The notes beneath the pieces were generated by a model. It had not been told where the DNA came from, made no database searches, and saw only the letters and a list, made by a program, of their open reading frames with translations. A program made the translations under genes and the position numbers. Of a stretch of DNA of 44,175 nucleotides, positions 1,246-40,900 are shown in pieces. This stretch comes from a virus (lineage: Duplodnaviria; Caudoviricetes): positions 1 to 44,175 of the IMG/VR virus record IMGVR_UViG_3300032373_001178; one strand, written 5' to 3'. Position 1 is the first letter of the stretch; every line of letters begins with the position of its first letter.

Positions 1246-1512
1246 TTACTCGGTTTTTAAAAGTTCAACATCCTTAACATGCAGCTCGTATTCATATCCG
1301 AAACAGTAGTTTCGTCCTAGATACCAGCCACTTTTTATTTTGCACCCATTATAGGTGCTGGTGCGGTCTTTCCATCCCGGCCCCCGTTCGGTGTCCCTAA
1401 CCAAAATCTTGGTTCTTGAATTGGGGATTAATCGGGTAATCTCTCCATTGAATACCGCGCCTTTGTACTTAGCGTATACTGGCATTCCAACTTCTGCATT
1501 AGAGTATTTCAT
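1246..1512 (-). CDS. Hypothetical protein (88 aa)
   Basis: Start MKYSNAE at 1512 is directly preceded by the recurrent AATAAACGACAC motif; the longer track start (1593) is unlikely. Confidence 0.7.
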   Translation of the reverse strand: MKYSNAEVGMPVYAKYKGAVFNGEITRLIPNSRTKILVRDTERGPGWKDRTSTYNGCKIKSGWYLGRNYCFGYEYELHVKDVELLKTE

Positions 1513-1672
1513 TGTGTCGTTTATTAGTGAATAATTGGAATTGATTAACATTAGTTTGGTCAGCAAGATTCTCCATAAGCCGCGTTTGGACATAACCTAT
1601 CCAGGAGGGACAATTGAAGTCCTCCGCTGAGAATTTCCAGAAGCGGGTTGGTGTTAAGTAAGGAGGGGTGAT

Positions 1673-2332
1673 TTACGCCACTGACGCGGTGAGCTGTTCG
1701 GCTCGATACTGGTAGGGTACTCTACTTCGGATAAGACGTTTGATTTGCTTAAATCGTTGTTTGTTTGCTTCTTCTACTGCATAGTCAATCAGGTGTCTTG
1801 CTTCTGACAATATTCCATTTTCCTCATGGTCTGAACCATAGTAACCCCAACAATGGTGAAGTTCTTTACCGTCAGGCGCGGTGATTCCGTAGCCATAGAC
1901 ATTCCCTACCAAATACTCATCATAAACTTCCACCTCTTGTAAGAGCCATTGTTGAGCTTGTTGCAGCCTAATTTTGGTCCACCTTTTCCAATCATGCCCG
2001 GCCTGCTGTATAGTTTCCAAATCAGTGTAAATTATCCCTACATTGAGTCGGTCCCTATTGCAATTAAACCGCTGTGAGCTTATGGAAATACTACCATGAT
2101 CGTATAAGTAGAGGTTGAGAGCAACAACCTTATTATTCTTAATCGCTAACCGAATAAAGTCAAGAAATTCCTGTTCATCGCTCCAGTTGTGCTCATCTCC
2201 TAATCGGTACTTGCTATGATAGCATACCATTTTACCAATGCACCCGTCAAATTCTTTTCTCGGATTCTGCGGGTCATCATCCCGGATGATGTGAATTTTA
2301 TGTCCTCGGTAATCAATGATTTCTTTGTTCAT
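1673..2332 (-). CDS. Conserved hypothetical protein of mobile elements
   Basis: 219 aa; pattern DxPxNPR..C.H..Y.LGD..LYLYDH..YD.YL.G.VYG..CWGYYG, recalled from phage/ICE hypotheticals. Confidence 0.75.
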   Translation of the reverse strand: MNKEIIDYRGHKIHIIRDDDPQNPRKEFDGCIGKMVCYHSKYRLGDEHNWSDEQEFLDFIRLAIKNNKVVALNLYLYDHGSISISSQRFNCNRDRLNVGIIYTDLETIQQAGHDWKRWTKIRLQQAQQWLLQEVEVYDEYLVGNVYGYGITAPDGKELHHCWGYYGSDHEENGILSEARHLIDYAVEEANKQRFKQIKRLIRSRVPYQYRAEQLTASVA

Positions 2333-2784
2333 GGTTTTTCGGTTTGACTGTTTGGCTTACCTGTATATTTTACTGACCACCACCCAAAGAATTGGATGCT
2401 TTCCTTTCCTTTCTGAACATCCTCGTGCAGCTCCCCCTCTCGAACCCCCTGCATTATCATATTCCTGATTCTCGATTGCCCATTAGTATGCAACATTTCC
2501 ATGTTGTCCTCGGTGGGCATGTACAGGTCGTTGTTCCACCAGTTGTATTCAATTGTGGCTCCTATTACCTTTTGAGCAAGAGCCAATTTTATGGCCTCAA
2601 GATTTTCTATTACCAAAGGTTCATTTACAAACGCATTATCAAAAAATATGACCTTGCCACTGTCCTGATCGACAACAGCCACCGTCTTTCCATTTTCGTT
2701 ATCATTCTTGGTAAAGTAGGCATCGAGGTGCCGAAGATTATCTTCATCGACATAATCTGTTCTTAGTTCCTTAATTGTTTTCAT
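2329..2784 (-). CDS. Hypothetical protein
   Basis: 151-aa ORF with a 4-bp overlap with the downstream gene. Confidence 0.75.
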   Translation of the reverse strand: MKTIKELRTDYVDEDNLRHLDAYFTKNDNENGKTVAVVDQDSGKVIFFDNAFVNEPLVIENLEAIKLALAQKVIGATIEYNWWNNDLYMPTEDNMEMLHTNGQSRIRNMIMQGVREGELHEDVQKGKESIQFFGWWSVKYTGKPNSQTEKP

Positions 2785-2849
2785 TTTGACTTAGTTTTTA
2801 TTTGATTGACTTCTGGACCGCTCAGGATAAATGGGAAGGCTCAGAAGGA

Positions 2850-3296
2850 TTACCAGACTAACCTTTCCTTGGTTAGCTGCTTAAAGCCCCACTCAGACCT
2901 ATCTACAGACCTATCTTCATCGCTCCAATCTCGAAAGACATAAAACTCATGATCCACTGGTTGTTGTTGATCCCAGGTGGGCCTGCTACTAAAACATTCA
3001 ACAATTATCTTCGGTCTCTCGAACTTCTTGGAATAAAGCAGTTTTTCCAGATTTTCCGAGATGTCAGAATCCCAGCCTGTTTGAAACACGATGATTTCGA
3101 AGAATTCAAGTTGTTCGATAATGTATTCCATTGGCAGTTTGTCAATTCGGAATAGCGCATTGTATTTTACTTGCTGCTCCAGAAGGATTGTTTCAAAATT
3201 TCCTACCGCATTGTGCAGGCCATTGTCTCGTTCCAAAAACAACACGCTCTGTCCATTTTTAAAAACCTTGCCGATTTTTTGTTCTATTGTTTCCAT
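2850..3296 (-). CDS. Hypothetical protein
   Basis: Likely start METIEQ at 3296, which avoids overlap with 3317..3811. Confidence 0.7.
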   Translation of the reverse strand: METIEQKIGKVFKNGQSVLFLERDNGLHNAVGNFETILLEQQVKYNALFRIDKLPMEYIIEQLEFFEIIVFQTGWDSDISENLEKLLYSKKFERPKIIVECFSSRPTWDQQQPVDHEFYVFRDWSDEDRSVDRSEWGFKQLTKERLVW

Positions 3297-3316
3297 CTTA
3301 TTAATTGTTAATTGGA

Positions 3317-3811
3317 TTAGTTTATCACCTCTTCCTTTGTTTCCTGATACTTCCAAAGTACTAAGACCTTGCCCCCCTTTACACTTGGCGAACAAAAACG
3401 AACTACTATACTGGCATCTGAGTTGCCCCCTAATTCATGGACCCCGGTATGGATACCCTCAGTTATTTCATTTTCCGGTATAAGGTCGTACCACCGACTC
3501 CCGTAGTAGGTGTTTAAAAAGTCTCGAACAAGCAATATCATGTTCAATTCTGTCAGTATCCATCGTGCAAAATCCGCTGGAGGCTGAAATAGACCTATAG
3601 GGCGTTCAATGCTGTTCAGATAGCTTTCTGATAGTTGCCAGAAAGTTGTACCCGTTGTAGTCACCTTGCAATGTTTAATTGCATCCCAGGCTACATTAGT
3701 GGGCAGCCCCTTTTCCCGCATTTTTACATAATCCAGTATCTCAATTTTTGTTATTCTGGAAGTTTCGGGGTCGAACCATTCACCTTCTTTCAATACTTGT
3801 TTGTAATTCAT
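3317..3811 (-). CDS. Hypothetical protein
   Basis: 164-aa ORF preceded by the recurrent motif. Confidence 0.75.
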   Translation of the reverse strand: MNYKQVLKEGEWFDPETSRITKIEILDYVKMREKGLPTNVAWDAIKHCKVTTTGTTFWQLSESYLNSIERPIGLFQPPADFARWILTELNMILLVRDFLNTYYGSRWYDLIPENEITEGIHTGVHELGGNSDASIVVRFCSPSVKGGKVLVLWKYQETKEEVIN

Positions 3812-3855
3812 AATCGTGTCGTTTATTAGCGTTGTTGATATTAACCTGGCTTAGT

Positions 3856-4185
3856 TTAAATGAACTCATCGGTTAGCACGAGTCCGGCATCCCGAATAAA
3901 CTGAACTGTCGGTGGTGAAAGCTGATAGGCTCCATCATAGTCAGTTACCGTTGGTTTGCCAGTTTCCTCCGAATACTCCCACCACAGGCCAATGTATCCA
4001 CCAATCTCTCCACCATCAAGACTAGTCTTTGCAACTCGTCCCTCTCCAGTACTGAGATCTCCTGTCCCGGTCCACAAATCATAGGTGGCAGAATCTCCGT
4101 TTAACAGCACATTATCATAGGTCTTTGTTAATACTGATTTCATGGTTTCAGGTGTTAAAGGTTTGGAGTAGAATTTGGTTTTCAT
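3856..4185 (-). CDS. Hypothetical protein
   Basis: 109-aa ORF in the co-directional run. Confidence 0.7.
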   Translation of the reverse strand: MKTKFYSKPLTPETMKSVLTKTYDNVLLNGDSATYDLWTGTGDLSTGEGRVAKTSLDGGEIGGYIGLWWEYSEETGKPTVTDYDGAYQLSPPTVQFIRDAGLVLTDEFI

Positions 4186-4537
4186 CCATTTCGACTGTGG
4201 AGGTCATACCGGGATTATCTCTGAGTTTATCAAGGTTGAGGTTGTAACCATTTTCAAGGTGAAGTGCGAGCATATCCAAATGATCGGATATGACAGTTCT
4301 AGTCTTGTTGTACCGGAATTGACCTGAAAGAATAACATGATCATCCCTACTCCAATAACCCCTTTCAATCATTCCTTTGACGTTTCCCGATTTGTCAATA
4401 TTTGGATGGCATGAATGTCCCAATCCAGTAGAATAATTCTCAATGGAAACGATGCCATTTTCGGCCCGTATGTTAACCGATGTGCCGTTGATTTGCAGCA
4501 CATCACCTTCAACTGATAGTACAATTGTATATTTCAT
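4148..4537 (-). CDS. Hypothetical protein
   Basis: Likely ATG start MKYTIV at 4537. Confidence 0.7.
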   Translation of the reverse strand: MKYTIVLSVEGDVLQINGTSVNIRAENGIVSIENYSTGLGHSCHPNIDKSGNVKGMIERGYWSRDDHVILSGQFRYNKTRTVISDHLDMLALHLENGYNLNLDKLRDNPGMTSTVEMDENQILLQTFNT

Positions 4538-4570
4538 TTTCGTAAGTTTTGATAAGATTTTGGGCAACAG

Positions 4571-4595
4571 AAAAGGGGAGCTATAAAGCCCCCCT
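4571..4595 (-). terminator. Intrinsic terminator
   Basis: Minus strand AGGGGGGC-TTTATA-GCTCCCCT-TTT, downstream of 4633..4938. Confidence 0.65.
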
Positions 4596-4632
4596 CTGGT
4601 TCGGTGTCGCGTTCTTTAAATATTGCAGATTG

Positions 4633-4938
4633 CTACCACAAAGCTTCTGGAAGAAAGGCGTGGACTTCAACTAACCGTAAATCACCTTTGGCAAAAAGAA
4701 TGGGCAAACTCCTCGCTTTTTTTTGCTCCAATTCTTCACGAGTATAGGTTTTGTATTCCCCTAACAAATCATCGATGCTTTGGGTCATCAAGGCCCAAAT
4801 GAGCTGGACGTAATCCATACTTCCAGAACAATAACATTTGTTATCGTCTCGAATCTCATAGTACAGCGATATGTCCGTGTCCGTGGAATAAATACTTTGA
4901 GTTGGGCTTACAAAATCTGTAATTGGTTCAATAGTCAT
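4633..4938 (-). CDS. Hypothetical protein
   Basis: 101-aa ORF preceded by the recurrent motif. Confidence 0.7.
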   Translation of the reverse strand: MTIEPITDFVSPTQSIYSTDTDISLYYEIRDDNKCYCSGSMDYVQLIWALMTQSIDDLLGEYKTYTREELEQKKARSLPILFAKGDLRLVEVHAFLPEALW

Positions 4939-4970
4939 GGTGTCGTTTATTAGAAGTTTTCGTGAGGTTG

Positions 4971-5405
4971 CTAAAGGATGGTGATATCAACTACTTCCTC
5001 ATCTTCGTTCAAGTGATATTTCAATTCGGTTTGCCTGTCGGAGCATTCAATAATGAACACCCCCTTTTCTTCGTCAGTTTCGATGAAGTCGATTCCTACC
5101 TTTGTACAAGCAGATTGGATGATTTCCTCAATTCCATCAACATGAGGTTGACACCCACTTAGGTCATTTTCTACGAATATTTGGAGGTTCAAAAAATCAA
5201 CTAGTTGGTTTGCCGGTTGCTGCCCTTTTGTATAGGCAACATGAGCATCAGCCAACTTTGCCATATTGTCCAATTGGCCGTCCATTATCCCGCGCCCCTC
5301 TGCGTTCAAACTGGGGTACATTCTTCTATATAATCTCAATGTATCGGCCCATGATGGAGTAACATCTTCGGCTGCGTATTTGCTCAAATCTTCTGTTGTT
5401 GGCAT
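4971..5405 (-). CDS. Hypothetical protein (intact copy of duplicated gene)
   Basis: 144 aa; near-identical over most of its length to 6014..6446; preceded by the motif. Confidence 0.8.
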   Translation of the reverse strand: MPTTEDLSKYAAEDVTPSWADTLRLYRRMYPSLNAEGRGIMDGQLDNMAKLADAHVAYTKGQQPANQLVDFLNLQIFVENDLSGCQPHVDGIEEIIQSACTKVGIDFIETDEEKGVFIIECSDRQTELKYHLNEDEEVVDITIL

Positions 5406-5465
5406 AATTGTGTCGTTTATTTGTTGGGTTTACATGAGGTTGTTAATTGATGTTGATAGCATTAA

Positions 5466-5981
5466 TTATATTTCCATTTCAAAAATGCACTCTGCTATTA
5501 TTTCATAATTTTCTCCTTCATCAATCCAATTACACATTTCATTATAAGAATACCCAAATGGCTCTACGCACTTAAACATTTCTTCATCAGTGTATTCGCT
5601 CAATTGTATTTCAGATTCATATACTTCTGTCTCGTTTGTTTCAGGATTTACAACCCTATCCTCTTTAAATAAAAATATATTGTCTGCAATTTTTTTAAAC
5701 ATTTGATTGCAGCTTGGGTCTGTTACTACCCATACCATATTGGTGTCATTTCGAAATAAGCTATCGACAAGGGCGATAAATGAAATGCAGTCAGCTTCCG
5801 TTTCTAGGTCAGCAATACATTCTAACCCGCCCCATTCAAGGTGGGCATAGACAGACCAAAAATCAGGTTCTTCGTTGTCGGTGCATTGTTCTATTACATC
5901 GGGGGCTACTTCTTGAACTGGGTGATACTCTAGCTGGTCCCATGTCGCGCCTTCGGATAATGGTGTAAATTCGATTTTCAT
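5466..5981 (-). CDS. Acidic hypothetical protein
   Basis: 171 aa, very D/E-rich; preceded by the motif. Confidence 0.75.
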   Translation of the reverse strand: MKIEFTPLSEGATWDQLEYHPVQEVAPDVIEQCTDNEEPDFWSVYAHLEWGGLECIADLETEADCISFIALVDSLFRNDTNMVWVVTDPSCNQMFKKIADNIFLFKEDRVVNPETNETEVYESEIQLSEYTDEEMFKCVEPFGYSYNEMCNWIDEGENYEIIAECIFEMEI

Positions 5982-6013
5982 AATGTCGTTTATTCGAGGT
6001 TTACGGGAGGTTG

Positions 6014-6446
6014 CTAACTGATAGTGATACCAACAACTTCCTCATCTTCGTTCAAATGATATTTCAATTCGGTTTGCTTGTCGGAGCATTCGATAATGAA
6101 CACCCCCCTTTTCTTCGTCAGTTTCGATGAAGTCGATTCCAACCTTTGAACAAGCAGATTGAATGATTTCCTCCATTCCACCTACACAAGGTTGAGACCC
6201 ACTTAGGTCATTTTCTACGAATATTTGGAGGTTCAAAAAATCAACTAATTGATTTGCTGGTTGCTGCCCTTTTCTATGGGCAACGTTGGCATCTGCTACC
6301 CTGGCCATGTGGTCCAACTGGTCGTCCATTTTTTTACGACCAATAGTGTCTAAGCTGGGGTATAAGCGTCTATATAATCTCAATGTATCGGCCCATGTTG
6401 GAGTAACATCTTCGGCTGCGTATTTGCTTAAATCTTCTGTTTTCAT
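6014..6446 (-). pseudogene. Frameshifted duplicate of 4971..5405
   Basis: C6 run at about 6103-6108 versus C5 at about 5060-5064 in the intact copy. The homologous C-terminus (..EDEEVVGITIS*) continues in another frame to a stop at 6014. Confidence 0.75.
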
Positions 6447-6458
6447 AGGAGTATTGAT

Positions 6459-7284
6459 TTAGAATGATAATTGCATCTGTTCCGTCTGCGGATTTCCAGT
6501 AACGGTGATTTCTTCTTTTGGCTCGTCTTGGTAGTCAAATTCAACCTCTACGATTTCAGTAGTAATGTTCACCCCTCGCCATTGGTCTCGGTAACATGAG
6601 GTATCAATCCCAATGTTGTGGCCTAACGTAATTCCAGTATCGCGCTCGAAGGAAATTAGTTTACTAGATAAGCTACCATTATGACGTTTACAGATAAAGT
6701 GTGGCTGTCCTGACAATTCAAACGGACAAGAAACTTGTGGAAGGATAAACGCACCGTCCCGTGAAATTTTCGAAGCCACTTCAATTACCTTAAACTCAAA
6801 CTCTGGTCCCCTATAATTCAGCCAACTAGTGCTATCAGTTTGCACCCTTCCAAAAGGGGGGTTAGATATGCTCTGGTCAAATTTGCCAAGGCTGGATATT
6901 AGTTTCTCATCCAATACCGAACCCAACACCCAATTTGCCTCTGGTAGAATTTTCTTTCCTACCTCCACATAATCCGGGTTAATTTCGACACAAGTGATTT
7001 GAGCATTTGGATTATCCCTCCAATAGTCATGTTGATTTGATATTGTAAAAGCCAGTGTTCCAATTCCCGCGCACAAATCAATTATGTTCGTATCGTATCG
7101 CTAGGTTAATTTCCCGCGCCAGATCGTAGGGTGTAAAAAAGGCTCCCATACTGGAATTAACATGGTTTGCTGATTCTTGCCAGTTGTCGATAACAAACAG
7201 CTTATCGTCATAACTCAATTTGTCCTTTTCAAGCAATCGGCAAGCCTGCTCATGCGCTCGAATTTGAGGTTTGGATAGTTTCAT
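6459..7284 (-). pseudogene. Frameshift-split N6-adenine DNA methyltransferase (plasmid/ICE type)
   Basis: 7078..7284 carries the N-terminus with GAFFTP. The other frame reads IIDLCAGIG (motif I) and SNPPFG (motif IV). The frame break is near 7085-7100. Confidence 0.8.
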
Positions 7285-7313
7285 GTTTTTGTCGTTTATT
7301 AGGTGTGTTGGAC

Positions 7314-7340
7314 AAAAAAAGGGGGCAATGAATGCCCCCT
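7314..7340 (-). terminator. Intrinsic terminator
   Basis: Minus strand AGGGGGCA-TTCAT-TGCCCCCT-TTTTTT, after the DUF3560 gene. Confidence 0.8.
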
Positions 7341-7371
7341 GTGGTGTTCTAAAGTTGAAATTTTTGACCTC

Positions 7372-8163
7372 TTATGAGCAAAGCTTTTCCACTAGTTCAA
7401 TGGCCTCTTGCACCGCCCATTTTGAACGGTATTTTTGCCAACAACCATTTGAAGGTGACCACCGATAGCCATTCCGTTTCAAGTCCTTCCTAACATCAAA
7501 TTCTGGCTTTCCAGGAAAAAACAGTTGCAGTCTGTTATCTTCAATGCTGTCAACTATATTGACACCATGTACAGTGCGTTCCGTTGTTTCATCGCCTTCC
7601 TTGTTTTCAAATTCAGTGATGCGTTGCTTTATTCTTCGCATGTTCCCGTTGTTATTCGTTAACAGATAGGAAGGAAAACCCACCCTTCCACCAAAATCAG
7701 GTTCAAGAATTTTAAGTACTTCTTTTTCAGTGTATCCCTGTGCTTTCAGTCCGTCAACCTTTTCAACTTCCGATAGTTTCTTGCTTTTAACAACTTTGTT
7801 TGCAGCTTTCATTTTCTCCTGCGTCTCTTCCAAGTCGGTCAACTTATCCCGCAATTTTGTTAGTGCATCTGGATCGTCAGAACTGATAGCTGTATTGCTT
7901 TCAGCAGCCTTAGCCTTGTCAGCATAGTAGTCTGACGTTTCGCCCAACTTAACGGATTGCCCCATTTTGTTCCAAGACCTGTCTAGCAGATTCCTATGGC
8001 CTTTTTCGGAGTGATGACCAACTAGAATTGGCTGACCCATAGGTATGTGTTCAACCATACTTTTTGATGCCTTATACGCTTCCTCTGATTCTCTTTTTTT
8101 CTTCGCGGCCAAGTCCTTGTATCGGTCTATTCTGGCCTGTTTTCTTTCTTCGTAACTACTCAT
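7372..8163 (-). CDS. DUF3560 domain protein
   Basis: YEERKQARIDRY...IPMGQPILVGHHSEKGHR signature; C-terminal NRLQLFFPGKP..LK.NGYRWSP...WQ. Confidence 0.85.
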   Translation of the reverse strand: MSSYEERKQARIDRYKDLAAKKKRESEEAYKASKSMVEHIPMGQPILVGHHSEKGHRNLLDRSWNKMGQSVKLGETSDYYADKAKAAESNTAISSDDPDALTKLRDKLTDLEETQEKMKAANKVVKSKKLSEVEKVDGLKAQGYTEKEVLKILEPDFGGRVGFPSYLLTNNNGNMRRIKQRITEFENKEGDETTERTVHGVNIVDSIEDNRLQLFFPGKPEFDVRKDLKRNGYRWSPSNGCWQKYRSKWAVQEAIELVEKLCS

Positions 8164-8212
8164 AATTTGTCGTTTATTAGTGATTGTACTACCCCGGCCC
8201 GAAGGCCGAACG

Positions 8213-8539
8213 CTATGAGCCTAAAGCCTCTTTTAAGTCGCTCATACGACTGAAAGATTCCAAGCCTATTGTATGCAGTTGCCTTATTGATTTTTCCGTT
8301 GCTCTGCAATTGTCAGTGGCAAGGGTTATACTGGGGTCGTCACTACTCATAAGCACATAATTAAAACTTGTAAAACCGGGACTCGAAGTATCTAAGGTTC
8401 CAGCTTGCGCATAGCATTTAATCCCTCTTGAACTTTTCCAAGTCGTTACTTTCCAATCCCTTCCTAAATGGTTGACATGAGTTTCAGCTTGCCAGCCACC
8501 ACGTTCTTTTTTTAATGTTGATTTGGTTAAATATTCCAT
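8213..8539 (-). CDS. Hypothetical protein
   Basis: 108-aa ORF. Confidence 0.7.
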   Translation of the reverse strand: MEYLTKSTLKKERGGWQAETHVNHLGRDWKVTTWKSSRGIKCYAQAGTLDTSSPGFTSFNYVLMSSDDPSITLATDNCRATEKSIRQLHTIGLESFSRMSDLKEALGS

Positions 8540-8574
8540 GTTTGTCTGTGTTATATTCGTTTGATTGATTTGTG

Positions 8575-8602
8575 AAAAAAGGGGAGACTTGATCGCCTCC
8601 CC
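8575..8602 (-). terminator. Intrinsic terminator
   Basis: Minus strand GGGGAG-N10-CTCCCC-TTTTTT, right after the J-domain gene stop. Confidence 0.75.
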
Positions 8603-8610
8603 GGATTGTG

Positions 8611-9129
8611 CTAAACGGCCAATTTGAAACGACCTTGATTGATTCCTTTGGGGCTATCTTCGTCACCACTTCGATTAACTTTTTCTGCTCCGAACATACC
8701 TTTAATCTCTTCGTAGCTGTGGGTTTTCTTGGACCTTCTGCGGTATTTTCTAGGTGAGAAATACCACTGTCCTTTTTTAGGCGAAAAGCCCCGTTTCATT
8801 TCCTCGCCAGTGTCAATAGCTTTTATCTGCTCTTTTACTGGTTTGGTGTTACCCTCTAACCAGATGAAGGAGCCGCAAACAACTATTTCAATTCCCGGAA
8901 TTTTAATGAGTTGGAAAATGATTTCAGCATAGGCTACACCATCCCACTGGTCATACTCACCTTTAAATTTTTCATGCTCTGTTTCCGGTCTGAATGCGTG
9001 GAAATAGTTTAGCAACTCCTGAAAATCTTCTTTCCTCCCTCCCTTGTCCGGGTGATGGATGATAGCCAGTTTGTGAAACAGCTTTTTTGCTTCGTCAAGG
9101 GTTTGAACCCCGATAAATGGATTTGTCAT
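8611..9129 (-). CDS. J-domain (DnaJ-like) protein
   Basis: KKLFHKLAIIHHPDKGG...FQEL: HPD motif in a short N-terminal J-domain. Confidence 0.85.
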   Translation of the reverse strand: MTNPFIGVQTLDEAKKLFHKLAIIHHPDKGGRKEDFQELLNYFHAFRPETEHEKFKGEYDQWDGVAYAEIIFQLIKIPGIEIVVCGSFIWLEGNTKPVKEQIKAIDTGEEMKRGFSPKKGQWYFSPRKYRRRSKKTHSYEEIKGMFGAEKVNRSGDEDSPKGINQGRFKLAV

Positions 9130-9212
9130 TGTGTCGTTTATTAGTGATTGATTAATTACTTTTGGATGGTCGTTTATTAGTGAATAGCCGCAAGACCATT
9201 CGTTAATAACAG

Positions 9213-9236
9213 TCCCCGGAATAGTAGTTCCGGGGA
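9213..9236. other. Perfect 9-bp stem hairpin
   Basis: TCCCCGGAA-TAGTAG-TTCCGGGGA; no good U-tail on the minus strand. Confidence 0.6.
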
Positions 9237-9258
9237 TATTTTTATGGCTCGACTGAAT

Positions 9259-9795
9259 CTACCTCTTGCCATCTAAGGTGTGGTTATCAGCAAATGAGTA
9301 ATACCCGGTGGTTGTCACTATCAAATGGTCGACCAGTTCTAAATCAAGAACTTCCCCGCACTTTTTCAGTTCCCCTGTTATCTTAAAATCTGATTCGCTC
9401 GGTTTTAAACTTCCAGATGGATGATTGTGAGCAACCATAAAGGAGGAAGCACCACTTTTAAGCCCCGTGGCCAGAATTAATTTTTTGTCAGCAACAACAC
9501 CTGAAATCCCTCCATCCCCGATCTTAATCCAGCCAAGGACACGCATCGCACTGTTTAGAAAAATTGCGTAAAATGATTCTCGTAGTTCAATCGTGTCGTG
9601 ATCCCAAACCTTCATTAGGTAATCACGAGCGGCATCACTAGATGAAATCTTCACACGTTCGGAGGCAGGCGTTTTAGTTTTATATCTAAGCTGTATTTCC
9701 TCTAACATTGGGCATGTTTCCCAAGATTCGCCACGGGGCTGCACTTCGCCTTGTGGTGCATCCTCATAAATTGGTAATGCTGTTTGATTTGTCAT
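9259..9795 (-). CDS. JAB-domain (RadC-like) protein
   Basis: E..FYAIFLN...HNHPSGSLKPSESD...LVDHLIV...YYSFAD. Confidence 0.9.
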   Translation of the reverse strand: MTNQTALPIYEDAPQGEVQPRGESWETCPMLEEIQLRYKTKTPASERVKISSSDAARDYLMKVWDHDTIELRESFYAIFLNSAMRVLGWIKIGDGGISGVVADKKLILATGLKSGASSFMVAHNHPSGSLKPSESDFKITGELKKCGEVLDLELVDHLIVTTTGYYSFADNHTLDGKR

Positions 9796-9825
9796 AGTGT
9801 CGTTTATTAGTTGTTGTTGATAGGA

Positions 9826-10059: not shown

Positions 10060-10090
10060 AGATTCTAATTTTGGTTAGTATTTGTTGAAA

Positions 10091-10162
10091 TAGTCCCCCC
10101 GGCCGGAATTGAACCAGCCGAACGATAAAACCCTAAATCGTTTCTGAACCTCAGAGGGGGGA
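10091..10162 (-). ncRNA. Non-canonical tRNA-like cloverleaf
   Basis: TCCCCCC/GGGGGGA acceptor stem; TCTGA-GGT-TCAGA; AACGAT-N10-ATCGTT; GGCTGG-TTCAATT-CCGGCC T-arm; ends CTA rather than CCA. Confidence 0.6.
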
Positions 10163-10500
10163 TAAAAGCGCAACTCGTATAGTCACGCTTTTAGATGTTT
10201 TCATTGTGTTTAGTTCTTCCGGGCACTTCCGCCAGTTTACCCGGTTACATTTGTTTGCAAGCCTTAAAGACTTGCCTTCGTTTTGCCTTCTAATCGCGGC
10301 ACTTTCCCTTATACCCGTCACAGGTATTAGTTAGGCTCAGAGGGTGTAAAGCTCCTGCCCGGAATTGTCGCCAGATTCATTGTCCCGCCTTTCTCATGGC
10401 GGGGGCTGCGGTTCGAACAACGTTGCTGTTAAATCCATTGGGTTACTGTACTTCGCCCGAAGCCGTTTAAGCGGGTCATTTCCTACCCGTGTTCGTTTTA
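10163..10500 (-). ncRNA. Candidate structured leader RNA
   Basis: Gene-free, visibly GC-enriched, with many hairpins (CGGGT/ACCCG, CCCGCC/GGCGGG, ATACC/GGTAT, GCAAGTC/GGCTTGC, AAAAGCG/CGCTTTT) and a 9-bp long-range pair, 10217-25 with 10356-64. Confidence 0.55.
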
Positions 10501-10505
10501 TCAAG

Positions 10506-10532
10506 ATGTCAAAGAACAGGCGTTAAAAGCCT
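10506..10532 (-). promoter_or_regulatory. boxB-like hairpin plus boxA antitermination element
   Basis: AGGC-TTTTAAC-GCCT followed by (T)GTTCTTTGACAT; 10/12 match to rrn boxA TGCTCTTTAACA. Confidence 0.65.
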
Positions 10533-10554
10533 TTGTATTGATTAATCAACAATG

Positions 10555-10562
10555 CAATGATA
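10555..10562 (-). promoter_or_regulatory. Possible Bacteroidetes -7 promoter element
   Basis: TATCATTG, one mismatch to TAnnTTTG, about 40 nt upstream of boxA. Confidence 0.35.
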
Positions 10563-10786: not shown

Positions 10787-11149
10787 CTAAACCCGGTTTA
10801 AATGGCTTTCCATTATTCGGGCGTATCTCCTTAACACAAGTTCACCGGGTCCGGTAATGTGATAGTAATTAGCTCGTGAAGGGCTGGAGGTCTTTCGGGT
10901 AATCTCTATATATCCTATCTGCTCTAATTGGTGTATGTATTTATATACATCTGTAGAAGGGAGAACCAACAGCCATTGTATAAGAGCGGGAACCGTAAAA
11001 AATGGTTGATCGGGTTCTTGCAATGAATAAGCACCGCACAGTATTTCAAGTTGCCCCCGATTAAGCCCGTACAACTGCCGAATCTCTTTAATAACCTTAC
11101 GATTGATTGAGAATTGACGAATGAGGGGTAAACCTTTATAAATGGACAT
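10787..11149 (-). CDS. Winged-helix (MarR-like) DNA-binding protein
   Basis: GLNRGQLEIL...VYKYIHQLEQIGYIEI...YYHITGPG pattern typical of wHTH proteins. Confidence 0.65.
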   Translation of the reverse strand: MSIYKGLPLIRQFSINRKVIKEIRQLYGLNRGQLEILCGAYSLQEPDQPFFTVPALIQWLLVLPSTDVYKYIHQLEQIGYIEITRKTSSPSRANYYHITGPGELVLRRYARIMESHLNRV

Positions 11150-11556: not shown

Positions 11557-11655
11557 CAATTTTGTCACGCAAAACAATCAATTGGAGGCAATTTTGTCAC
11601 GCAAAATACGTCTATTGTGGACAAAAGCTCCAATTAAAGTGTAATTTTGTCACGC
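11557..11655 (+). promoter_or_regulatory. Three AATTTTGTCACGC boxes upstream of the late operon
   Basis: CAATTTTGTCACGCAAAA at 11557 and 11589, AATTTTGTCACGC at 11643; the last overlaps TAATTTTG (TAnnTTTG). Confidence 0.7.
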
Positions 11656-11682
11656 TAATAATTCAAAAAAAAGCTCTGTAAG

Positions 11683-33120: not shown

Positions 33121-34956
33121 ATGAATGTAGACCCAGGAGCAATTAACTATCAACAGGGACTTGGAGGAGCAGTAATACTGCCAACCTTCAATAATTCCGG
33201 TTTGTGGAAAGTCGCAGCTACAGAGCAACAAAAGCAGCAAGACCAAGCTACCGCAAAAGCCGCTGAGGACAAGGCGATAAATGACCTGTTAACAAAGGAT
33301 ATTGACCCACCTGCAAGGAGAGACGTTGAAGCCGTTAGAGGGCAAATCGGAGAAATGGAAACATACATCTCCGATCAACTAGCACAGGAAAGCCGAGACT
33401 TCACCAAAGCTGGTACTCCAGAATGGCGAGAATTACAGGAGTTGCAAAGAAAAACAACCTGGGGCGCGAAAAAGTCCCAAGAAGATGAGGCGTGGCTTAC
33501 GGAAACTGTCAAGCAAATTAAATCAAGCAGCGACCCCTATTTAGACAAGGAGGAAGCCATGAGACAGGTGTTGAGATATTATTATGGAACGGACGGAAAG
33601 AAAAACGTTTTTACGGAAGACTATGGCGAAAGACCTAATTGGCAAGGAGCATTCAATGAAGGTGCCTGGGTAAAGGATTTTGTTGACGGCCTTCCGGAAA
33701 AAGTGTCTGAGCAATTCGAAATCGGAAGCGATGGCCAAGGGACGCTCATCGTGTCAGAAGAAGTGAAAGGGAAGTTTTTTGACCTTGATAAAAATGGAGA
33801 CATTAAAACTGACTCCAAAGGAAAACCCATAATTAATGTCGGACCAGAGTTTACGGAAATGGCCATGCAGGATAGTCGCTTCCGAAGTCACGTAGAAAGA
33901 GAAATGGCCGATCCCTCAAATGCCGGTAAAACTGCCCAACAAATTGTAGAAGAAAAACTCAGAAGTCACGGTCAACTAAATATTAAGTCCAGCGCAAAGG
34001 GCGGTCACCGATACCCAAGCAAATCGGGGTCAGGGAAGAATAAAACATCTAGTGAGGACAACGTACTTACAGAAATGTCCAAGCTGCTGCAGCACGACTT
34101 TGGGAAGCTTAAAACAGGGACAGACGAAAGCGTTACACTTCCTGACGGTACTCAGAAAATTCTACGAAAAGTACCAAGCTTGTTTGACCTCAAAAAGATG
34201 GGAACTAACGAGTTGGGCGACAAGGTTACGATAGACGGCATCTATATAGACCCTGGACAAAAAGAAGGCTTTTTCATTCAGGATAGCGATGGAAATGTAC
34301 AAGAATTTGATTCCAGCAACGCCTATGATCTCTTATCGGTCCTGACCGAAAATACCGGGGAATACAATCGTACACAGATAGACAGGATACTTGGAGAGAA
34401 AGACGGCTATCAAAATGGGGTATTCCAACCCAATAAGTTCTACAAAAGTGATGTAGGTGACAAGCAAACAGTTGTTGAACAAGAATCCGGGTATCAACAG
34501 TTGGTTCAGATTAAACAAGACAAAGCCATCGAAATTTTGGATCAGCTGGAAGATACGGGAGCATTCGAATGGATCGGCAACAAGGTCTTTGGATGGGCAG
34601 GTGTGGAAAACCTCAATCAGAAGTTTGCCGTGCGCCTGGAGAAAGAAGTACTCAATGATGTCGGGCTAATAATAGACGGCAAAAAATATCCAAACCTGGG
34701 TATTGAAGTTAGTTCCAGTGGAGCCTTCACACTCAAAAACAAAGACAATGGTGAAGTGATAGAGGAAAGCCTTTCTGAGGATCAGCTAAAGACACTATTC
34801 AGAACCTCCAAGATAATCCCCAAAAGGGCATATCTGGACGGGGAACAGGCCAAGGCTGCGAAAAAAGAGGAATCAGAAGATGAGCAGGAAAACAAAAAGT
34901 CTGCCGAACAGGAGGAAAACAACAAAGGTATCAACTACGGTGAATTGATTTACTAA
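33121..34956 (+). CDS. Putative ejection/internal virion protein 2
   Basis: 611-aa charged protein between the small and giant internal proteins. Confidence 0.55.
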   Translation: MNVDPGAINYQQGLGGAVILPTFNNSGLWKVAATEQQKQQDQATAKAAEDKAINDLLTKDIDPPARRDVEAVRGQIGEMETYISDQLAQESRDFTKAGTPEWRELQELQRKTTWGAKKSQEDEAWLTETVKQIKSSSDPYLDKEEAMRQVLRYYYGTDGKKNVFTEDYGERPNWQGAFNEGAWVKDFVDGLPEKVSEQFEIGSDGQGTLIVSEEVKGKFFDLDKNGDIKTDSKGKPIINVGPEFTEMAMQDSRFRSHVEREMADPSNAGKTAQQIVEEKLRSHGQLNIKSSAKGGHRYPSKSGSGKNKTSSEDNVLTEMSKLLQHDFGKLKTGTDESVTLPDGTQKILRKVPSLFDLKKMGTNELGDKVTIDGIYIDPGQKEGFFIQDSDGNVQEFDSSNAYDLLSVLTENTGEYNRTQIDRILGEKDGYQNGVFQPNKFYKSDVGDKQTVVEQESGYQQLVQIKQDKAIEILDQLEDTGAFEWIGNKVFGWAGVENLNQKFAVRLEKEVLNDVGLIIDGKKYPNLGIEVSSSGAFTLKNKDNGEVIEESLSEDQLKTLFRTSKIIPKRAYLDGEQAKAAKKEESEDEQENKKSAEQEENNKGINYGELIY

Positions 34957-37900
34957 TGGGAGGATTGCGCGAAATATATAACGGCCTCAGCTCCAAGAAC
35001 GAGGGCTTAAAAACTGCTGGTTTTGAAAAGTTCCAGGTTGACATGCAAAATGATGACAACCTTCGAAAAGTATTTGATGGCCTTGCTTCTAAAAACGAGC
35101 AGCTAGGAGAATACGGCTTCGACAAATTCAAGGCTGATATGTTCCCCGGTCCTGTAGGCGCTGTTAAAAAAAAAGATGGTACGAACCAATCCTCACATGG
35201 CTCAGGCTCCCCTCTCCCTCCTGAACCAAGCGACCCAACTGTTTGGAGCACTATGGACCTTTTTAAAGCGAATGTTAAACTTGGCTCAGAAGTTCCGGAA
35301 CTCAAAGAAGGGCTGATCGGTGCCGAGCCGGACGAGACAGACAAGCAATTGGTTGACGACTATCAAAGCATGTTCAATCAAGACCCTCGTGCCGTTGGGC
35401 TGACACGTCAGGAAATCGAACATGAATTGCGCCTTAGTCATCCAGATTATGAGCCACAAATTTACGCTGGCACTCCCTTCACCATGTTGGATGATGAGAC
35501 ATTTGAACAATTAGGTGAAGAGGAAAAAACAAACCTGCAAAATGAATCTGCCAAACTGCACCAACAAATAAATGACCGCAAGACCTTCGAAGATGCACGA
35601 AAAGTAACCTCCCAAACCATAAAAGAGTACCAAATGACTGACGCTGCATTCGTGCTCATATCAGACGAAGCTGAACACAAAATTCTGGAACAATCCTGGA
35701 CGGAAGGAGGAGGTCAATTCCCCCCATTCCGGCAAGCCTACCAAAGAAAGAAAGATGCTGCATGGAAACGCTTGATAGACCCAACTACCAGCCTACGAAA
35801 AGAAGTGGAATCCGAGGCTGCGCAACATGGTGGAACAGAGGCCATGTTAAACCCCGAAACACGCGATAAGGTTAAAACGGCAGTCCTCAACAAGCGATTG
35901 CACTATGGAGTAAACATGCTCTCTCCAGAGCACCGACAACTATACGCATTACAGGGACAGCGCTCCACCTTACTCCAACGACTACAGGAACCAATGAATC
36001 CAGCTGATCAGGTTACGCTAACTAGCCAGCTCGATGAACTAAACGCCCAAATTGAAAACTCCAGAGAAGCGGTCCCTGCATTGTTCGACCCGGCCACCGG
36101 TGAATATTTAGACCCGGAAGATGCGGATGACGAAAAGGTCCAACGCGCCCAAGCCTATGAAAAGGACATTCAAAAGCTCATGGTACGGTACGAGGATACT
36201 GACCTCGGTTCATTGGTCAATTCATGGAACCAACTGCAAAGCAAACTCAAATATGTTGAACAGCACCTTGGAAACCAAGCTACCATAGAGGTTCCTGGAA
36301 ACGACAATATAAGTGTTAGCGATGTGTATGAGCTGAAACGATATACGGAGAAAAAAGGGGCAGGATTTGGGATGCCATTAGGTGGAGATGCAGCAACAAA
36401 AATCACGAAATACACAGATGTTCTCCTTGAAACAAGAAAGAAATTTGATGCCGTAAATCGGACCCTGTTACTAAACATGGACCCTGGCAGCGTTCAAAAG
36501 AATGCAGGTTCTCTTTTCCTGGAATATGCTGCCGAAGGTTTTGGATTCGACATCAAAACGGACGTGGATTGGGTCGAGACTTATGTTGCCGCAATAAAGG
36601 AAACTGGAGGTACTTTGACCAAAGCCCAAGAAGAGGCAGCTAAAGATGAGCTTAAACATACTGCGGCAAAGGGGTTCGGTGCCTCTGTACGTCCAATGCT
36701 GGAAATCATGGTTACCTCCTACGGTATCGGAGCTGTGGGCCGCATCCCCATGATTGCAAAATACAGCAACATGTTAAAAGCCGGAATGGTCCAACGGTGG
36801 GGCAAACGTGGGGAACTGGCGTACAACGTCACCAAGGGACAATTACAAGGCACACTATCATTTGGCCTCACTTCCGATGAAAATTTATCGGCCATGATGG
36901 GAACAGGAGAAGGCACGGTGCAAGGTGTCTTGGATCACCTTAATGTTGAGAAATTTTTTCGAAAATCAAAGTGGGGTAAAGTTGCGGAGTTCGGGATGCG
37001 GCTTGGTTTTGGGACCACGACCGAGACTATTCAGGAGTTCGCTGGCGACTACCTGGACAACCTCAGCAGCTATAATTATAATTGGGAACTGGCATTTGAC
37101 GAAACCTTCGGACGGGAACCGGAAGACTTTATAGATAAACTGGTATTGACCGGGCTATTGTCTGCTGGATTTTCCGGGGCATTTAATGCCAAATATCTTG
37201 CCCAGGTGCGAACAGTAGTTGCCAATTCTGAAAGTCCACACAAAGAGGAATTATTGAATCAAATTGACACGGCTGTTCAGGAGCAAGAGCAATCAAACGC
37301 ATCTCCGGAAGAAAGCACAGAACCCGCTCAGGAGGAAACGGCAGAACAAGCACGGGCAAGCGGGGAGATTCAACCCCAAGAGGAGCCACAATTGGATATT
37401 TCTACCTTACCAAAAGACGAGCACCGGCAATTTACTCCAGAAGAAGAACAACAGGTAAAATCCAACTTTGAAGCCAGTGGCCTCACTCCACCAGTTACCG
37501 CAACAGAGGTTATTTCAACAGGCAGGCCAGTCATAGATTTAGCGAATAGGTGGGATGAGGTTTACGGAGAGTATGAGGAAATAATTGAGCAGCCCCGAAC
37601 GGAGCGCATCCAGGCAATCGAAACGGAAATTGATGGACTAAAAGACAAACGTAAGAAAACAGACAGGGAGCAGCGGAAAGCATTAAAAGAGGAGATTGTA
37701 ACCCTCACAGAGGAAATTGAATTTGGGCGGGGAATAATCGAACAGGAAGCACTTTCGTTTCAGGATCAGGTTATGGATTATGCCAAGCAGAGGGCCAGAG
37801 AGATGGGGCATAATTATGACGGTTTGGAAGCATTCGAGAAAGGTCAATTCATGGATGGCCTCAGTCAAGCCCTATTCGATAATCGAATGGTTGAAAATCA

Positions 37901-40900
37901 CCATAACCAACCTGCAAGGGATGTAATTGACTTTCTTGTTGATGACCATTTCAGCTCCCGCAATAAAGCGGAACCCACGAAACAAAACCCCAGCTCTGAT
38001 CCTATCAAATCGGTAGGAGACCCTTCTATAAATGAAGGTTTTTTGAACAGCCAGGTCAACCGGGGTAAAAAGACAAAAATCCGGCTTCCAAATGGCGAAA
38101 TGCGAGAATCAGAATTTGCATTGGTCGATGCCGATAAAATTTTGGCCTCACATGATGAGGTGAACTTTAACAACACAAAAGGCTACCCAACCCAAGGTGG
38201 AAGAAGTGTCAACCCAAGAAACTACAAGGCCGACCAAAACGCCCAAGGTCAAATCGACCAAATTGCTAAAAACCTAGACCCTTTTGAAATTATATCAAAT
38301 GCCGCCAATCCATCTACGGGAACACCTATAATTACCCCCGATGGAATCGTAGTTTCTGGCAACGGGCGAACCATGTCCATCAAACGGGCCATTAAATCCA
38401 ATCCAGAGGGGTATGCAGCATACGTCAACCACCTCAAAGGAGATATTGGCACCTACGGCCTGACAGAGGAGCAACTTGCCCAACACACCAACCCCATCCT
38501 GGTTAGAGTAGACAACAGCCTTTCAGAATACTCACCAAAGGAGCTGGACCGATACAACAAGCAATCCCAAAAGGAAGAGGCCAACATTGACAAAGTTGTC
38601 AAAATCGGCAAAATACTTAGCGACAATCCAGAAGGTAGAGGTCGAATTATGGAAGTCATTAGCCGTTACGATACGATGTCTGATTTCTTTAGCGACCGCA
38701 AGGCTCAGGAGACGGTTATGAAGCTCCTCCAAAACGAGGAAATTTTGCTTGACAACGAGTTGAGCAAGTACCTGGACACTGACGGCACTTTCAATAGAGA
38801 TGGAAAGGAACTCGTTCAGGACTCATTGCTTGGGCTTGTGCTGGACGAAGATACCTTGCGGGTATCAGAAATTCAAGGCGTAAAGAGCTTCCGAAGAAAT
38901 GTTGTAAACGCGATACCCGCACTTACCAAGAACTACACACTTGGAGAATACAGCTTACAAACTGAGCTGAACAAAGCAATTCAATTACAAGCTCAATTTC
39001 AACAATCAGGAATTGATGATTTCGCTACATTTGTGGCCCAACATGATCTATTTGAGGGATTGGCCGATGCAAATGTCATCAAAGTCAATCGAATGGTTAG
39101 CACCGGACCGAAGAGGTTCAAAAAAATGGTGCAGGTTTACAACCAATCGGCTGAACTCAGCTCCCAAGGTGGTGGATTATTTGGAGAAAGTGAAGTACTC
39201 GACAAAGAACAAATCTTAACTGGTCTAAATGACTCCAGCAGTAAACAATCAAGCACACAAAACCCAACTCCTGAACAACCTGGTAAAGGAGCACCTGACC
39301 CCACAGGAAAGGGAGGAACTGACCAAAGCATTGGCCAGTCTGCCAAAGAAGCAACCGATTCCCAAGAGGTAAGCGAGGCCGACACCGGCAGCAGCTCCCG
39401 GACGCTCGAAAATCAAATCAATGAAATTACATCCCGGTCAGACGAAACGTTTGATCAGGTTTCCAGCCAAGGTCTTAGCTCAGGTCGAATCAAGCGACCT
39501 CCGATAAATAAAACTGAGCTTCAGCAGCAAATACAATTTGCTGATTCCACTGTAGAAGATCGGTTCCGTGAGGCTGAGAAACTCCATGGCCCCGCAGAAT
39601 CTACCTGGACTAAATCCCGCGATTGGACCAAATCCACTTTACGCAACTTCCAGCGGCATTTTAAGCACCTCAACCCTCGCAAGTTCCCGGAACTGGCCAA
39701 TAAGTTGCGCGTTTTTGAAAGCCTTTCCGACTACAGCAAGGTTAAATCTGAGCAGTATGTTAAGGGGATATTGGAACCGCTGACCTCGGAGCAAAAGGAC
39801 ATCCTTGTACGAAGAATCATTTTAGAGGATTTAATCTATGGCGTTGATGGAGGCAAAGAAGTAGAACAAAAGCTCCCTTTCGGTTTCAAATCAAGGGATG
39901 AAGTTCAATCTGAACTGAACAAGTTTGTCCTGCTTATGGACCAGGAACCGGAAGCCCAAAAAGCCTACGATGCCCGTACCGGTTTTATGAAAGAACTATA
40001 TGAGCAAATGGTCAACAAAAACGTCATCGCTGACCAGGGCAACTATCAATCCTACTACCATCGAAGGGTCTTGCAGTACATACACGATGATGTGCAACAA
40101 CAGGTTATTCACGGCAAACGACTGACCAAAGCGCAGCGTAACTTTATGAAGCAACGGACCGGAACAATGGGCAAAGATTACAGCACCAATTTTCTGGAAA
40201 GTGAGTTTAGGGTGGTTGCCGATGCCCTTTTTGAGATTAAGAAAAAAGAGACTTTCGATGCCATTTTTGAACCGTATCAAACCCAACTCAAAGAGCTAAA
40301 ACAGCAGGCGGCAATTGCCTACGACTACAAGCTAAAACAACTCAAAAAACAGTTTGATTCGAGCGACAAAATCATCCAGGTATTTCAGGAAAAACGCAGC
40401 AGCTTCATTCAGGGGTTTATAGCCCAAAACAAGCCGGAGGGCTACACCGTTTATCAGCCCTCTCCTGGCAACAACCTTTTCAGACAATCAATGGTCACTC
40501 AGGGCCAGATAGAGGGCACGTTAGAGTACCTTAAAACTGAATTGGACCTGGTTAGCGCAGTCTCCATATTGGAACTGCTGGCCGCTGGCAGCTCCGACTT
40601 TCTGGTCGTTGGGGGCAAAAAAACGCAATACCTCATCCCGGAGGAGCTTGCAGCAACATTAGAGGACATTGGCTCACCACGCGCGGAGGTCACAAATTTG
40701 GAAAAGCTGTTTCGGGGGGCCACAACTTCTTGGAAAGCCTACGTGCTGCTTAACCCCAAAAGGGTGGTCAAATACAACATTAACAACATGATTGGCGACC
40801 TCGATGGAGTCCTGGCAGCCGACCCGACCATCTTAAAACATGGGCAAAGGGCTTGGAAAGAAATATTCCAGTACGCTCAAACCGGCAAAGTGAACAACCT

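Follow-up and report, generated by a model that had tools for sequence, protein, structure and literature searches.

A Start-Codon-Proximal Repeat in the Early Arm of a crAss-Related Prophage and Its Predicted Antisense RNA Reader

Main Finding

We analyzed the complete 44,175-nt sequence of IMG/VR record IMGVR_UViG_3300032373_001178 (hereafter, the window), a provirus record about 72% complete and coming from a crAss-related prophage, whose left (early) arm carries a ten-base motif, GTCGTTTATT, fixed just before the start codons of nine genes. We propose, with a probability of roughly two in three (0.68), that this motif is a tag, that is, the address for a predicted phage-encoded antisense small RNA which would block the translation of the tagged early genes. 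A tenth copy, the orphan, has no start codon; a small RNA is the likely reader of the tag because the orphan, read on the opposite strand, gives a promoter-like box, a predicted seed, a hairpin and a terminator-like stem. Here the start-associated repeat has a candidate reader, and the two change jointly from one related phage to another. The sequence-only reading that preceded this work had suggested either a regulon-wide translation signal or a joint for shuffling genes in an integron-like array; the first idea is supported, but it had missed the orphan as the likely small-RNA reader on the opposite strand.

The Tag and Its Copies

There are exactly 10 copies of GTCGTTTATT on the plus strand of the window, starting at 1516, 3818, 4942, 5412, 5985, 7291, 8169, 9133, 9169 and 9799, and none on the other strand; no exact copy is found past 9808. 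The single orientation, the nine spacers of 3, 5 or 6 nt to an AUG, the orphan at 9169 without an ATG and the empty late arm are all as previously noted. The spacer is 3 nt for starts 1512, 4938, 5981, 9129 and 9795, 5 nt for start 8163, and 6 nt for starts 3811, 5405 and 7284. CT leads the motif in 8 of the 10 copies, and an A directly follows it in all nine gene-linked copies, not in the orphan. The reversed pattern, used as a control, gives 0 matches in the window; when one mismatch is allowed, the motif gives 15 matches against a shuffle mean of 3.09 (maximum 9), and at least 15 were reached in 0 of 100 shuffles. The gene-linked copies, listed on the minus strand like their genes, are the following:

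1516..1525, minus strand: tag of ORF 1246-1512; 19-nt match to the seed
3818..3827, minus strand: tag of ORF 3317-3811; 14-nt match to the seed
4942..4951, minus strand: tag of ORF 4633-4938; exact copy, start-proximal
5412..5421, minus strand: tag of ORF 4971-5405; weak copy
5985..5994, minus strand: tag of ORF 5466-5981; weak copy, 10-nt core only
7291..7300, minus strand: tag of ORF 7078-7284, the N-terminal piece of a split DNA methyltransferase gene; exact copy
8169..8178, minus strand: tag of the DUF3560 gene 7372-8163; 15-nt match to the seed
9133..9142, minus strand: tag of the J-domain-like gene 8611-9129; 15-nt match to the seed
9799..9808, minus strand: tag of the RadC-like JAB gene 9259-9795; 13-nt contiguous match to the seed

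The tag is thus carried by 9 of the approximately 19 early-arm genes. These had been described as unrelated, which is right in that their coding regions show no DNA homology to each other (self-blastn), with the reservation that gene 5405, which is tagged, and gene 6446, which is not, are duplicates. We infer a Bacteroidota host for this phage, since the bins holding its relatives are labeled Flavobacteriales and Chitinophagales and since the early-arm leaders are A-rich and have no Shine-Dalgarno sequences. In a study on Flavobacterium, A at −3, −12 and −13 is given as a positive determinant of initiation (PMC6847099); the A at these three positions is kept in eight of the nine gene-linked copies, and since both this and the spacing of mostly 3 or 6 nt fit the host initiation rules, we place the tag right on the region of initiation. 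Its 10-nt core does not vary among the nine leaders, five of which have a G at −6, where A is favored. The tag is asymmetric, not palindromic, and is predicted to be mostly unpaired in the mRNA.

The motif is not a general host signal in the genomes examined: among 401 Bacteroidota genomes, proxies for the true host, 59 have a tag-plus-ATG match, with a maximum of two per genome, and the reversed control is no rarer. A Bacteroidota-wide initiation signal is rejected by this count; the rarity of the tag agrees across the proxy genomes, none of which is the host's own. Motif scans of viral_contigs returned 7, 61 and 9 loci, none with a multi-gene tag array, and the 13 viral loci given by a J-domain alignment share no start tag other than ordinary Shine-Dalgarno words. 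In an unrelated viral contig rich in AT (L057, 3938-4909), TAAACGAC occurs as two pairs of copies (66 nt apart), and in each pair an ATG follows the second copy.

The Orphan Copy and the Predicted Small RNA

The Bacteroidota sigma-A box TAnnTTTG sits at −12 to −5 (PMC9723704). Once the perfect box found beside the orphan is placed at this distance, the predicted +1 is 9169, which is the first base of the GTCGTTTATT orphan and the very base where its match to the nine tags ends. The features of the predicted unit are:

9157..9164, plus strand: TACTTTTG, a perfect match to the Bacteroidota sigma-A −7 box; the small RNA's predicted promoter, which would put +1 at 9169
9169..9243, plus strand: predicted antisense small RNA of 75 nt, with the orphan copy as seed at its 5′ end; minimum free energy −25.3, z −5.5
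9169..9173, plus strand: predicted unpaired 5′ toehold GUCGU, complementary to the ACGAC of the tags
9174..9209, plus strand: predicted hairpin masking the remaining seed, from the fold prediction
9212..9243, plus strand: intrinsic-terminator-like 11-bp stem and T run, from the sequence

The 75-nt RNA would accordingly fold into five free 5′ bases, a seed-masking hairpin and a terminator; its promoter and terminator are present by sequence only. The orphan is the only one of the 10 copies with a −7 box within 40 nt before it on the plus strand. The tag had been said not to be a TAnnTTTG promoter, and the motif itself indeed contains no such box, but one stands 4 nt before the orphan on the opposite strand. 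By an after-the-fact estimate, the probability of a box and a terminator at a random site is about 1e-5. No Rfam family matches the unit at gathering score, the best reaching 20.2 bits against 90.

Pairing of Seed and Tags

Complementarity to the 5′ region of the predicted small RNA extends over 10-19 nt for every tag, and over 13-19 nt in five copies. Net pairing energies range from −7.4 to −20.8 kcal/mol for the tagged starts versus 0 to −9.1 for ten untagged starts, and seven of the nine tags rank over every background site of the window in the seed ranking, with a free toehold of 5 nt and the remainder of the seed in the hairpin.

We then have a wider comparison in a scan for box-plus-terminator units, designed after the window unit and that of a relative (L120, below) had been seen and covering 114 loci, partly overlapping and many of them not Bacteroidota. 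Among the 143 units found, 116 have no start-proximal target, 23 have one and 2 have two; only the L120 unit (five) and the window unit (nine) have more.

Related Early Arms

Early arms were recovered for three relatives, L120 (genome G003) and the pair L114 and L115 (G002). The L120 arm is on the same contig as a capsid gene, which is 69% identical to that of the window. L114 and L115, 85% alike, form one lineage and are linked to the window by their shared winged-HTH and J-domain genes, the capsid contig L009 not being physically joined to them. The early gene content is almost wholly different between these relatives.

L120 has a tag of its own, CAATTAAAGC, before five early starts, including those of ArdC and of a prokaryotic ubiquitin-like gene. 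Its unit begins with the complement of that tag and starts on a G, the one-mismatch box standing at −12 to −5. A toehold of 9 nt is followed by a 14-bp hairpin, G-U pairs included, and by a terminator; the antisense strand of this unit folds far better than the other (−31.4 vs −17.0). Four trans tags pair with it at −10.3 to −20.5 kcal/mol versus 0 to −4.8 for eight untagged starts; the units of the window and L120 do not cross-pair (−0.4 to −5.0). In its 6.1-Mb bin, the L120 tag plus ATG occurs 6 times, 5 of them in the early arm. The sixth lies on contig L134 (7298-7311), before a tyrosine integrase gene adjoining a tRNA-Asp and followed by repressor-like and DnaB genes, and pairs with the L120 unit at −15.2; L134 has a tandem repeat in common with L120 and is probably the other end of its prophage.

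L114 and L115 have a third tag, with core CATTTAAA, in 4 copies each on the mRNA strand and 0 on the other. Their units have a perfect box, the same 4-nt gap, a G start, a hairpin and a terminator, and here too the fold favors the antisense strand (−25.8 vs −14.6 and −30.0 vs −22.5, respectively); strong pairing is found in cis only (−25.4 and −27.8). L114 (927-945) and L115 (equivalent position) each have one more tag-like copy, ahead of a one-codon ORF, where the early transcript is predicted to begin.

A box, then 4 nt, a seed starting with G, a hairpin and a terminator: this layout is consequently shared by four of the five arms examined, from three lineages. In an alignment of the four units the spacing is shared, and sequence likeness is too low for pair-covariation counts. 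L121, the more distant prophage arm, has AACGGYCTT 20 times in 18 kb, on both strands and mostly away from start codons; these repeats are possibly operator sites.

Further relatives were sought by several routes. Winged-HTH searches of 87, 1 and 351 genomes returned G002 and G003 only; in viral_contigs, no close relative was found via the capsid protein alone, a GroES-like alignment or a winged-HTH alignment, and a capsid alignment gave one distant record (L008). A metagenome scan returned the window's own contig (L014) and 22 distant loci without early-gene homologues, and cultured phages are at most distantly related, with 23% capsid identity among the matches listed (25 of 63).

Weighing the Antisense Reading against Its Alternatives

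Several observations weigh against an antisense small RNA as the reader. The pairing energies in the window demonstrate feasibility only, since seed and tags are the same motif and the argument is to that extent circular; moreover, the tags of 5405 and 5981 pair no better than background sites and are equaled by the untagged start 657 (−9.1). In the window, the mRNA strand of the unit gives a slightly better fold than the antisense strand (−27.0 vs −25.3), and CAAAnnTA, the box as it appears on the mRNA strand, is common in A-rich leaders, another one being found at 10066. Among the relatives, the L120 box has a mismatch and lies in ArdC codons; the L115 unit pairs with its own two trans tags at −1.9 to −2.9 only; the L114/L115 tag pattern is less element-specific, with 5 of 15 bin matches in the element and 10 further ones; and L121 has no such unit. 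Only three lineages were found. The first gene's own leader, read on its reverse strand, is itself the seed in L120, L114 and L115, for which reason only trans copies count as evidence in these three.

The foremost alternative is cis-only antisense control, for which this overlap speaks. The unit would act on the overlapped leader alone, as P22 sar acts on ant in a cis-antisense manner, and the other copies would be a good initiation sequence spread by duplication; leaders have indeed been copied within the window, and L114 and L115 show strong pairing in cis alone. We nevertheless find this explanation unlikely, given that the window seed copy has no start codon of its own, that the core is invariant in nine leaders even where the G at −6 replaces a favored A, that trans pairing reaches 13-19 nt in five window copies, and that L120 has four trans tags plus the one before the integrase.

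Somewhat less likely again is a tag serving as an RNA site for a phage or host protein, a translational repressor or an endonuclease for which T4 RegA and RegB are the models, with the orphan unit as a chance occurrence or a decoy. A short, asymmetric, mostly unpaired tag fixed near the start codon and a conserved winged-HTH gene nearby would suit such a protein, which, however, would explain neither the opposite-strand box lying exactly 4 nt from the tag end with a terminator in four elements, nor the wholly different tags beside a conserved protein set; in addition, no RNA-binding family was found among the scanned proteins.

That the motif is mainly a recombination joint for the capture and shuffling of single-gene cassettes appears slightly less probable still. 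In the window, the end of the 472-nt duplication (4927-5397, 5970-6441) comes only a few codons after a tag (a second internal duplication of the early arm, 587-667/1264-1344, was also observed), and one end falls on a tag in two of the three gains or losses of genes that separate L114 from L115: in one, the homology picks up again at the tag once a one-gene insertion has ended, and in the other it breaks off at the tag, ahead of a PRTRC block that is missing. The nearly complete difference in early gene content between relatives points the same way. Yet tags sit at gene boundaries, close to which the gain or loss of any gene will end, 10 bases are short for homologous exchange, and the promoter and terminator of the orphan would remain unexplained; no variant or joint at the tag was seen in the contigs of two DNA runs, contigs that drop rare variants. 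The breakpoint comparison proposed by the sequence-only reading therefore lends modest support to tag ends as the route by which genes join the regulon, a side effect rather than a function. The integron-like array, for its part, is not supported, since palindromic attC-like sites are not found, the tag being asymmetric, and no integron integrase is present among the 31 window proteins scanned (genome about 72% complete).

Finally, a promoter element for a phage or alternative polymerase making near-leaderless early transcripts is very improbable. It would suit an arm broken up by three terminator-like hairpins, whose mRNA strand shows no perfect −7 box from 1.2 to 10 kb; yet the tag is missing from two of the three genes directly after terminators, its spacer varies from 3 to 6 nt, and neither DxDxD nor DFD occurs in the 2483-aa virion protein (in a genome lacking about 28% of its length).

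Proposed Mechanism

Under the antisense reading, the host sigma-A polymerase would transcribe the orphan unit, and the free 5′ GUCGU of the RNA would dock on the ACGAC of a tag and open the hairpin. The resulting duplex would cover about −15 to −4 (up to 3 nt further upstream with the longer spacers), i.e., the region where Bacteroidota ribosomes use adenines (−12, −13) instead of a Shine-Dalgarno sequence; ribosome loading would be blocked and translation would fall, some untagged genes abutting tagged ones following by coupling. As a freshly infected cell has no such RNA, the tagged genes may be made in a short burst upon infection and then kept off in the lysogen. This burst would include the RadC-like, DUF3560, J-domain and methyltransferase genes, as well as ArdC and the integrase in a relative. 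The position of the unit inside the first early gene's leader in L120, L114 and L115, as against a separate copy further down the arm in the window, suggests that a regulator first acting in cis came to control many genes while leaders with the tag spread.

More tentatively, and with rather less confidence than in the antisense reading itself, one may imagine an all-RNA repressor-operator system in temperate Bacteroidota phages: a toehold RNA would silence any gene bearing the tag, anti-defense genes would join by recombination at the tag, and the lineage-specific tag-seed pair could act as an RNA immunity type and allow zygotic induction without a protein repressor. If the antisense reading is true, it shows how a phage can time a variable set of early and anti-defense genes in hosts without Shine-Dalgarno sequences; such genes could then be found by their tag, and orthogonal seed-tag pairs might serve gene control in Bacteroidota.

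Other Features of the Element

Three further features of the early region deserve mention:

8187..8251, minus strand: Pistol self-cleaving ribozyme (RF02679), 60.6 bits (gathering 34.5), E 2.8e-9
10555..10562, minus strand: TATCATTG, candidate promoter of the early arm with a single mismatch to the −7 box; transcription would start at about 10550
10787..11149, minus strand: winged-HTH gene also present in the three related early arms; marker of relationship

The Pistol of the window ends 8 nt before the tag at 8169-8178. L120 also has one (4226-4316, minus strand, 61.5 bits), which follows ArdC and precedes an untagged gene, so that a Pistol is found in both early arms beside different neighboring genes. 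Both are full-length matches over the gathering score, with no difference seen from the family, and likely cut the early message, judging from the sequence; roles of this kind are only suggested in the literature (PMC6765202).

L120, L114 and L115 have perfect boxes at the place equivalent to the candidate early promoter. Downstream of it in the window, 10060-10550 (minus strand) is a long leader with structure (z −3.2), at the end of which stands a three-arm, tRNA-like fold (about 10093-10162); Rfam gave no match to this leader, and ARAGORN did not call the fold at its default threshold, while at a low threshold the fold is one of 29 calls. A second perfect antisense −7 box (10066-10073, plus strand), 4 nt before a G at 10078, heads into this fold, with no terminator within 110 nt after it. 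The mRNA-strand terminator-like hairpins inside the early arm lie at 8581-8602, 7320-7340 and about 4571-4597.

The left arm consists of small minus-strand genes; its DNA methyltransferase gene (6459-7284, minus strand; phrog_3820) is broken into two ORFs in different frames, and PADLOC gave 0 matches for 10 early proteins. The right arm encodes a terminase, a portal, an SU10-type capsid, a crAss-type muzzle protein and, at 34956-42407 (plus strand), a 2483-aa probable ejected protein with a ddrB-ParB domain, at the place of the virion polymerase in crAss-like phages; no RNA-polymerase catalytic motif was found in it, and its reading as a virion RNA polymerase was rejected. Short tandem repeats lie between the winged-HTH gene and the late arm (11558-11666), with counterparts in L120 (6144-6156) together with L134 (7128-7147) and in L114 (156-175 and 4734-4753). 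In the relatives they recur where the prophage probably ends, and they resemble integrase arm-type sites placed internally.

Comparison with Known Systems

Our literature search, from whose coverage the older subscription literature is mostly absent, did not return a phage RNA with many tagged targets of its own. P22 sar, P1 C4 and P4 CI are small two-hairpin phage RNAs keeping lytic or antirepressor genes off. P22 sar is made convergently across the start of its target, a layout also seen in L120, L114 and L115; however, none of these three RNAs is known to act on more than one operon leader, whereas many separately tagged genes are concerned here.

The establishment regulons of pLS20-family plasmids resemble the early arm in that a repeated upstream sequence marks variable anti-defense genes (including ArdC) expressed transiently after entry (PMC8708921), and the burst-then-silence timing proposed above follows the logic described there for plasmid establishment genes. 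The means differ: EGeRS2 involves a DNA-binding repressor and EGeRS1 elements are 400-600 bp long, with a mechanism that the paper gives as unknown, as compared with a proposed 10-nt RNA tag and RNA regulator in the window phage. Antisense control of the plasmid genes is not supported there.

Similar to the proposed mechanism is that of GibS, a small RNA of Bacteroides thetaiotaomicron that represses by pairing with initiation regions without Shine-Dalgarno sequences through a single-stranded 5′ seed (PMC7366714), as the window RNA, with its predicted 5-nt toehold, would do. GibS regulates host metabolism, has a few targets that match imperfectly and pairs through a long seed free of structure; the window phage appears to have set a single, nearly identical tag ahead of many genes of its own, with a tag and a seed that vary from lineage to lineage.

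As for the tag itself, it resembles the start-associated sequences (SAS) of Cluster K mycobacteriophages, short asymmetric repeats present in many copies, in one orientation, just before start codons; the SAS are rare in their hosts, as the window tag is in the proxy genomes, and their function is given as unknown (PMC3203893). Sequence and host phylum are different, and the SAS consensus GGGATAGGAGCCC resembles a ribosome-binding site, which the window tag does not. Half of the SAS are accompanied by 17-bp inverted repeats (ESAS), none such being seen at the window tag among the 25 longest repeats listed. Unlike the SAS as described there, the window tag has a cognate antisense unit, which, if it acts as predicted, would offer a testable function for start-associated sequences in other phages.

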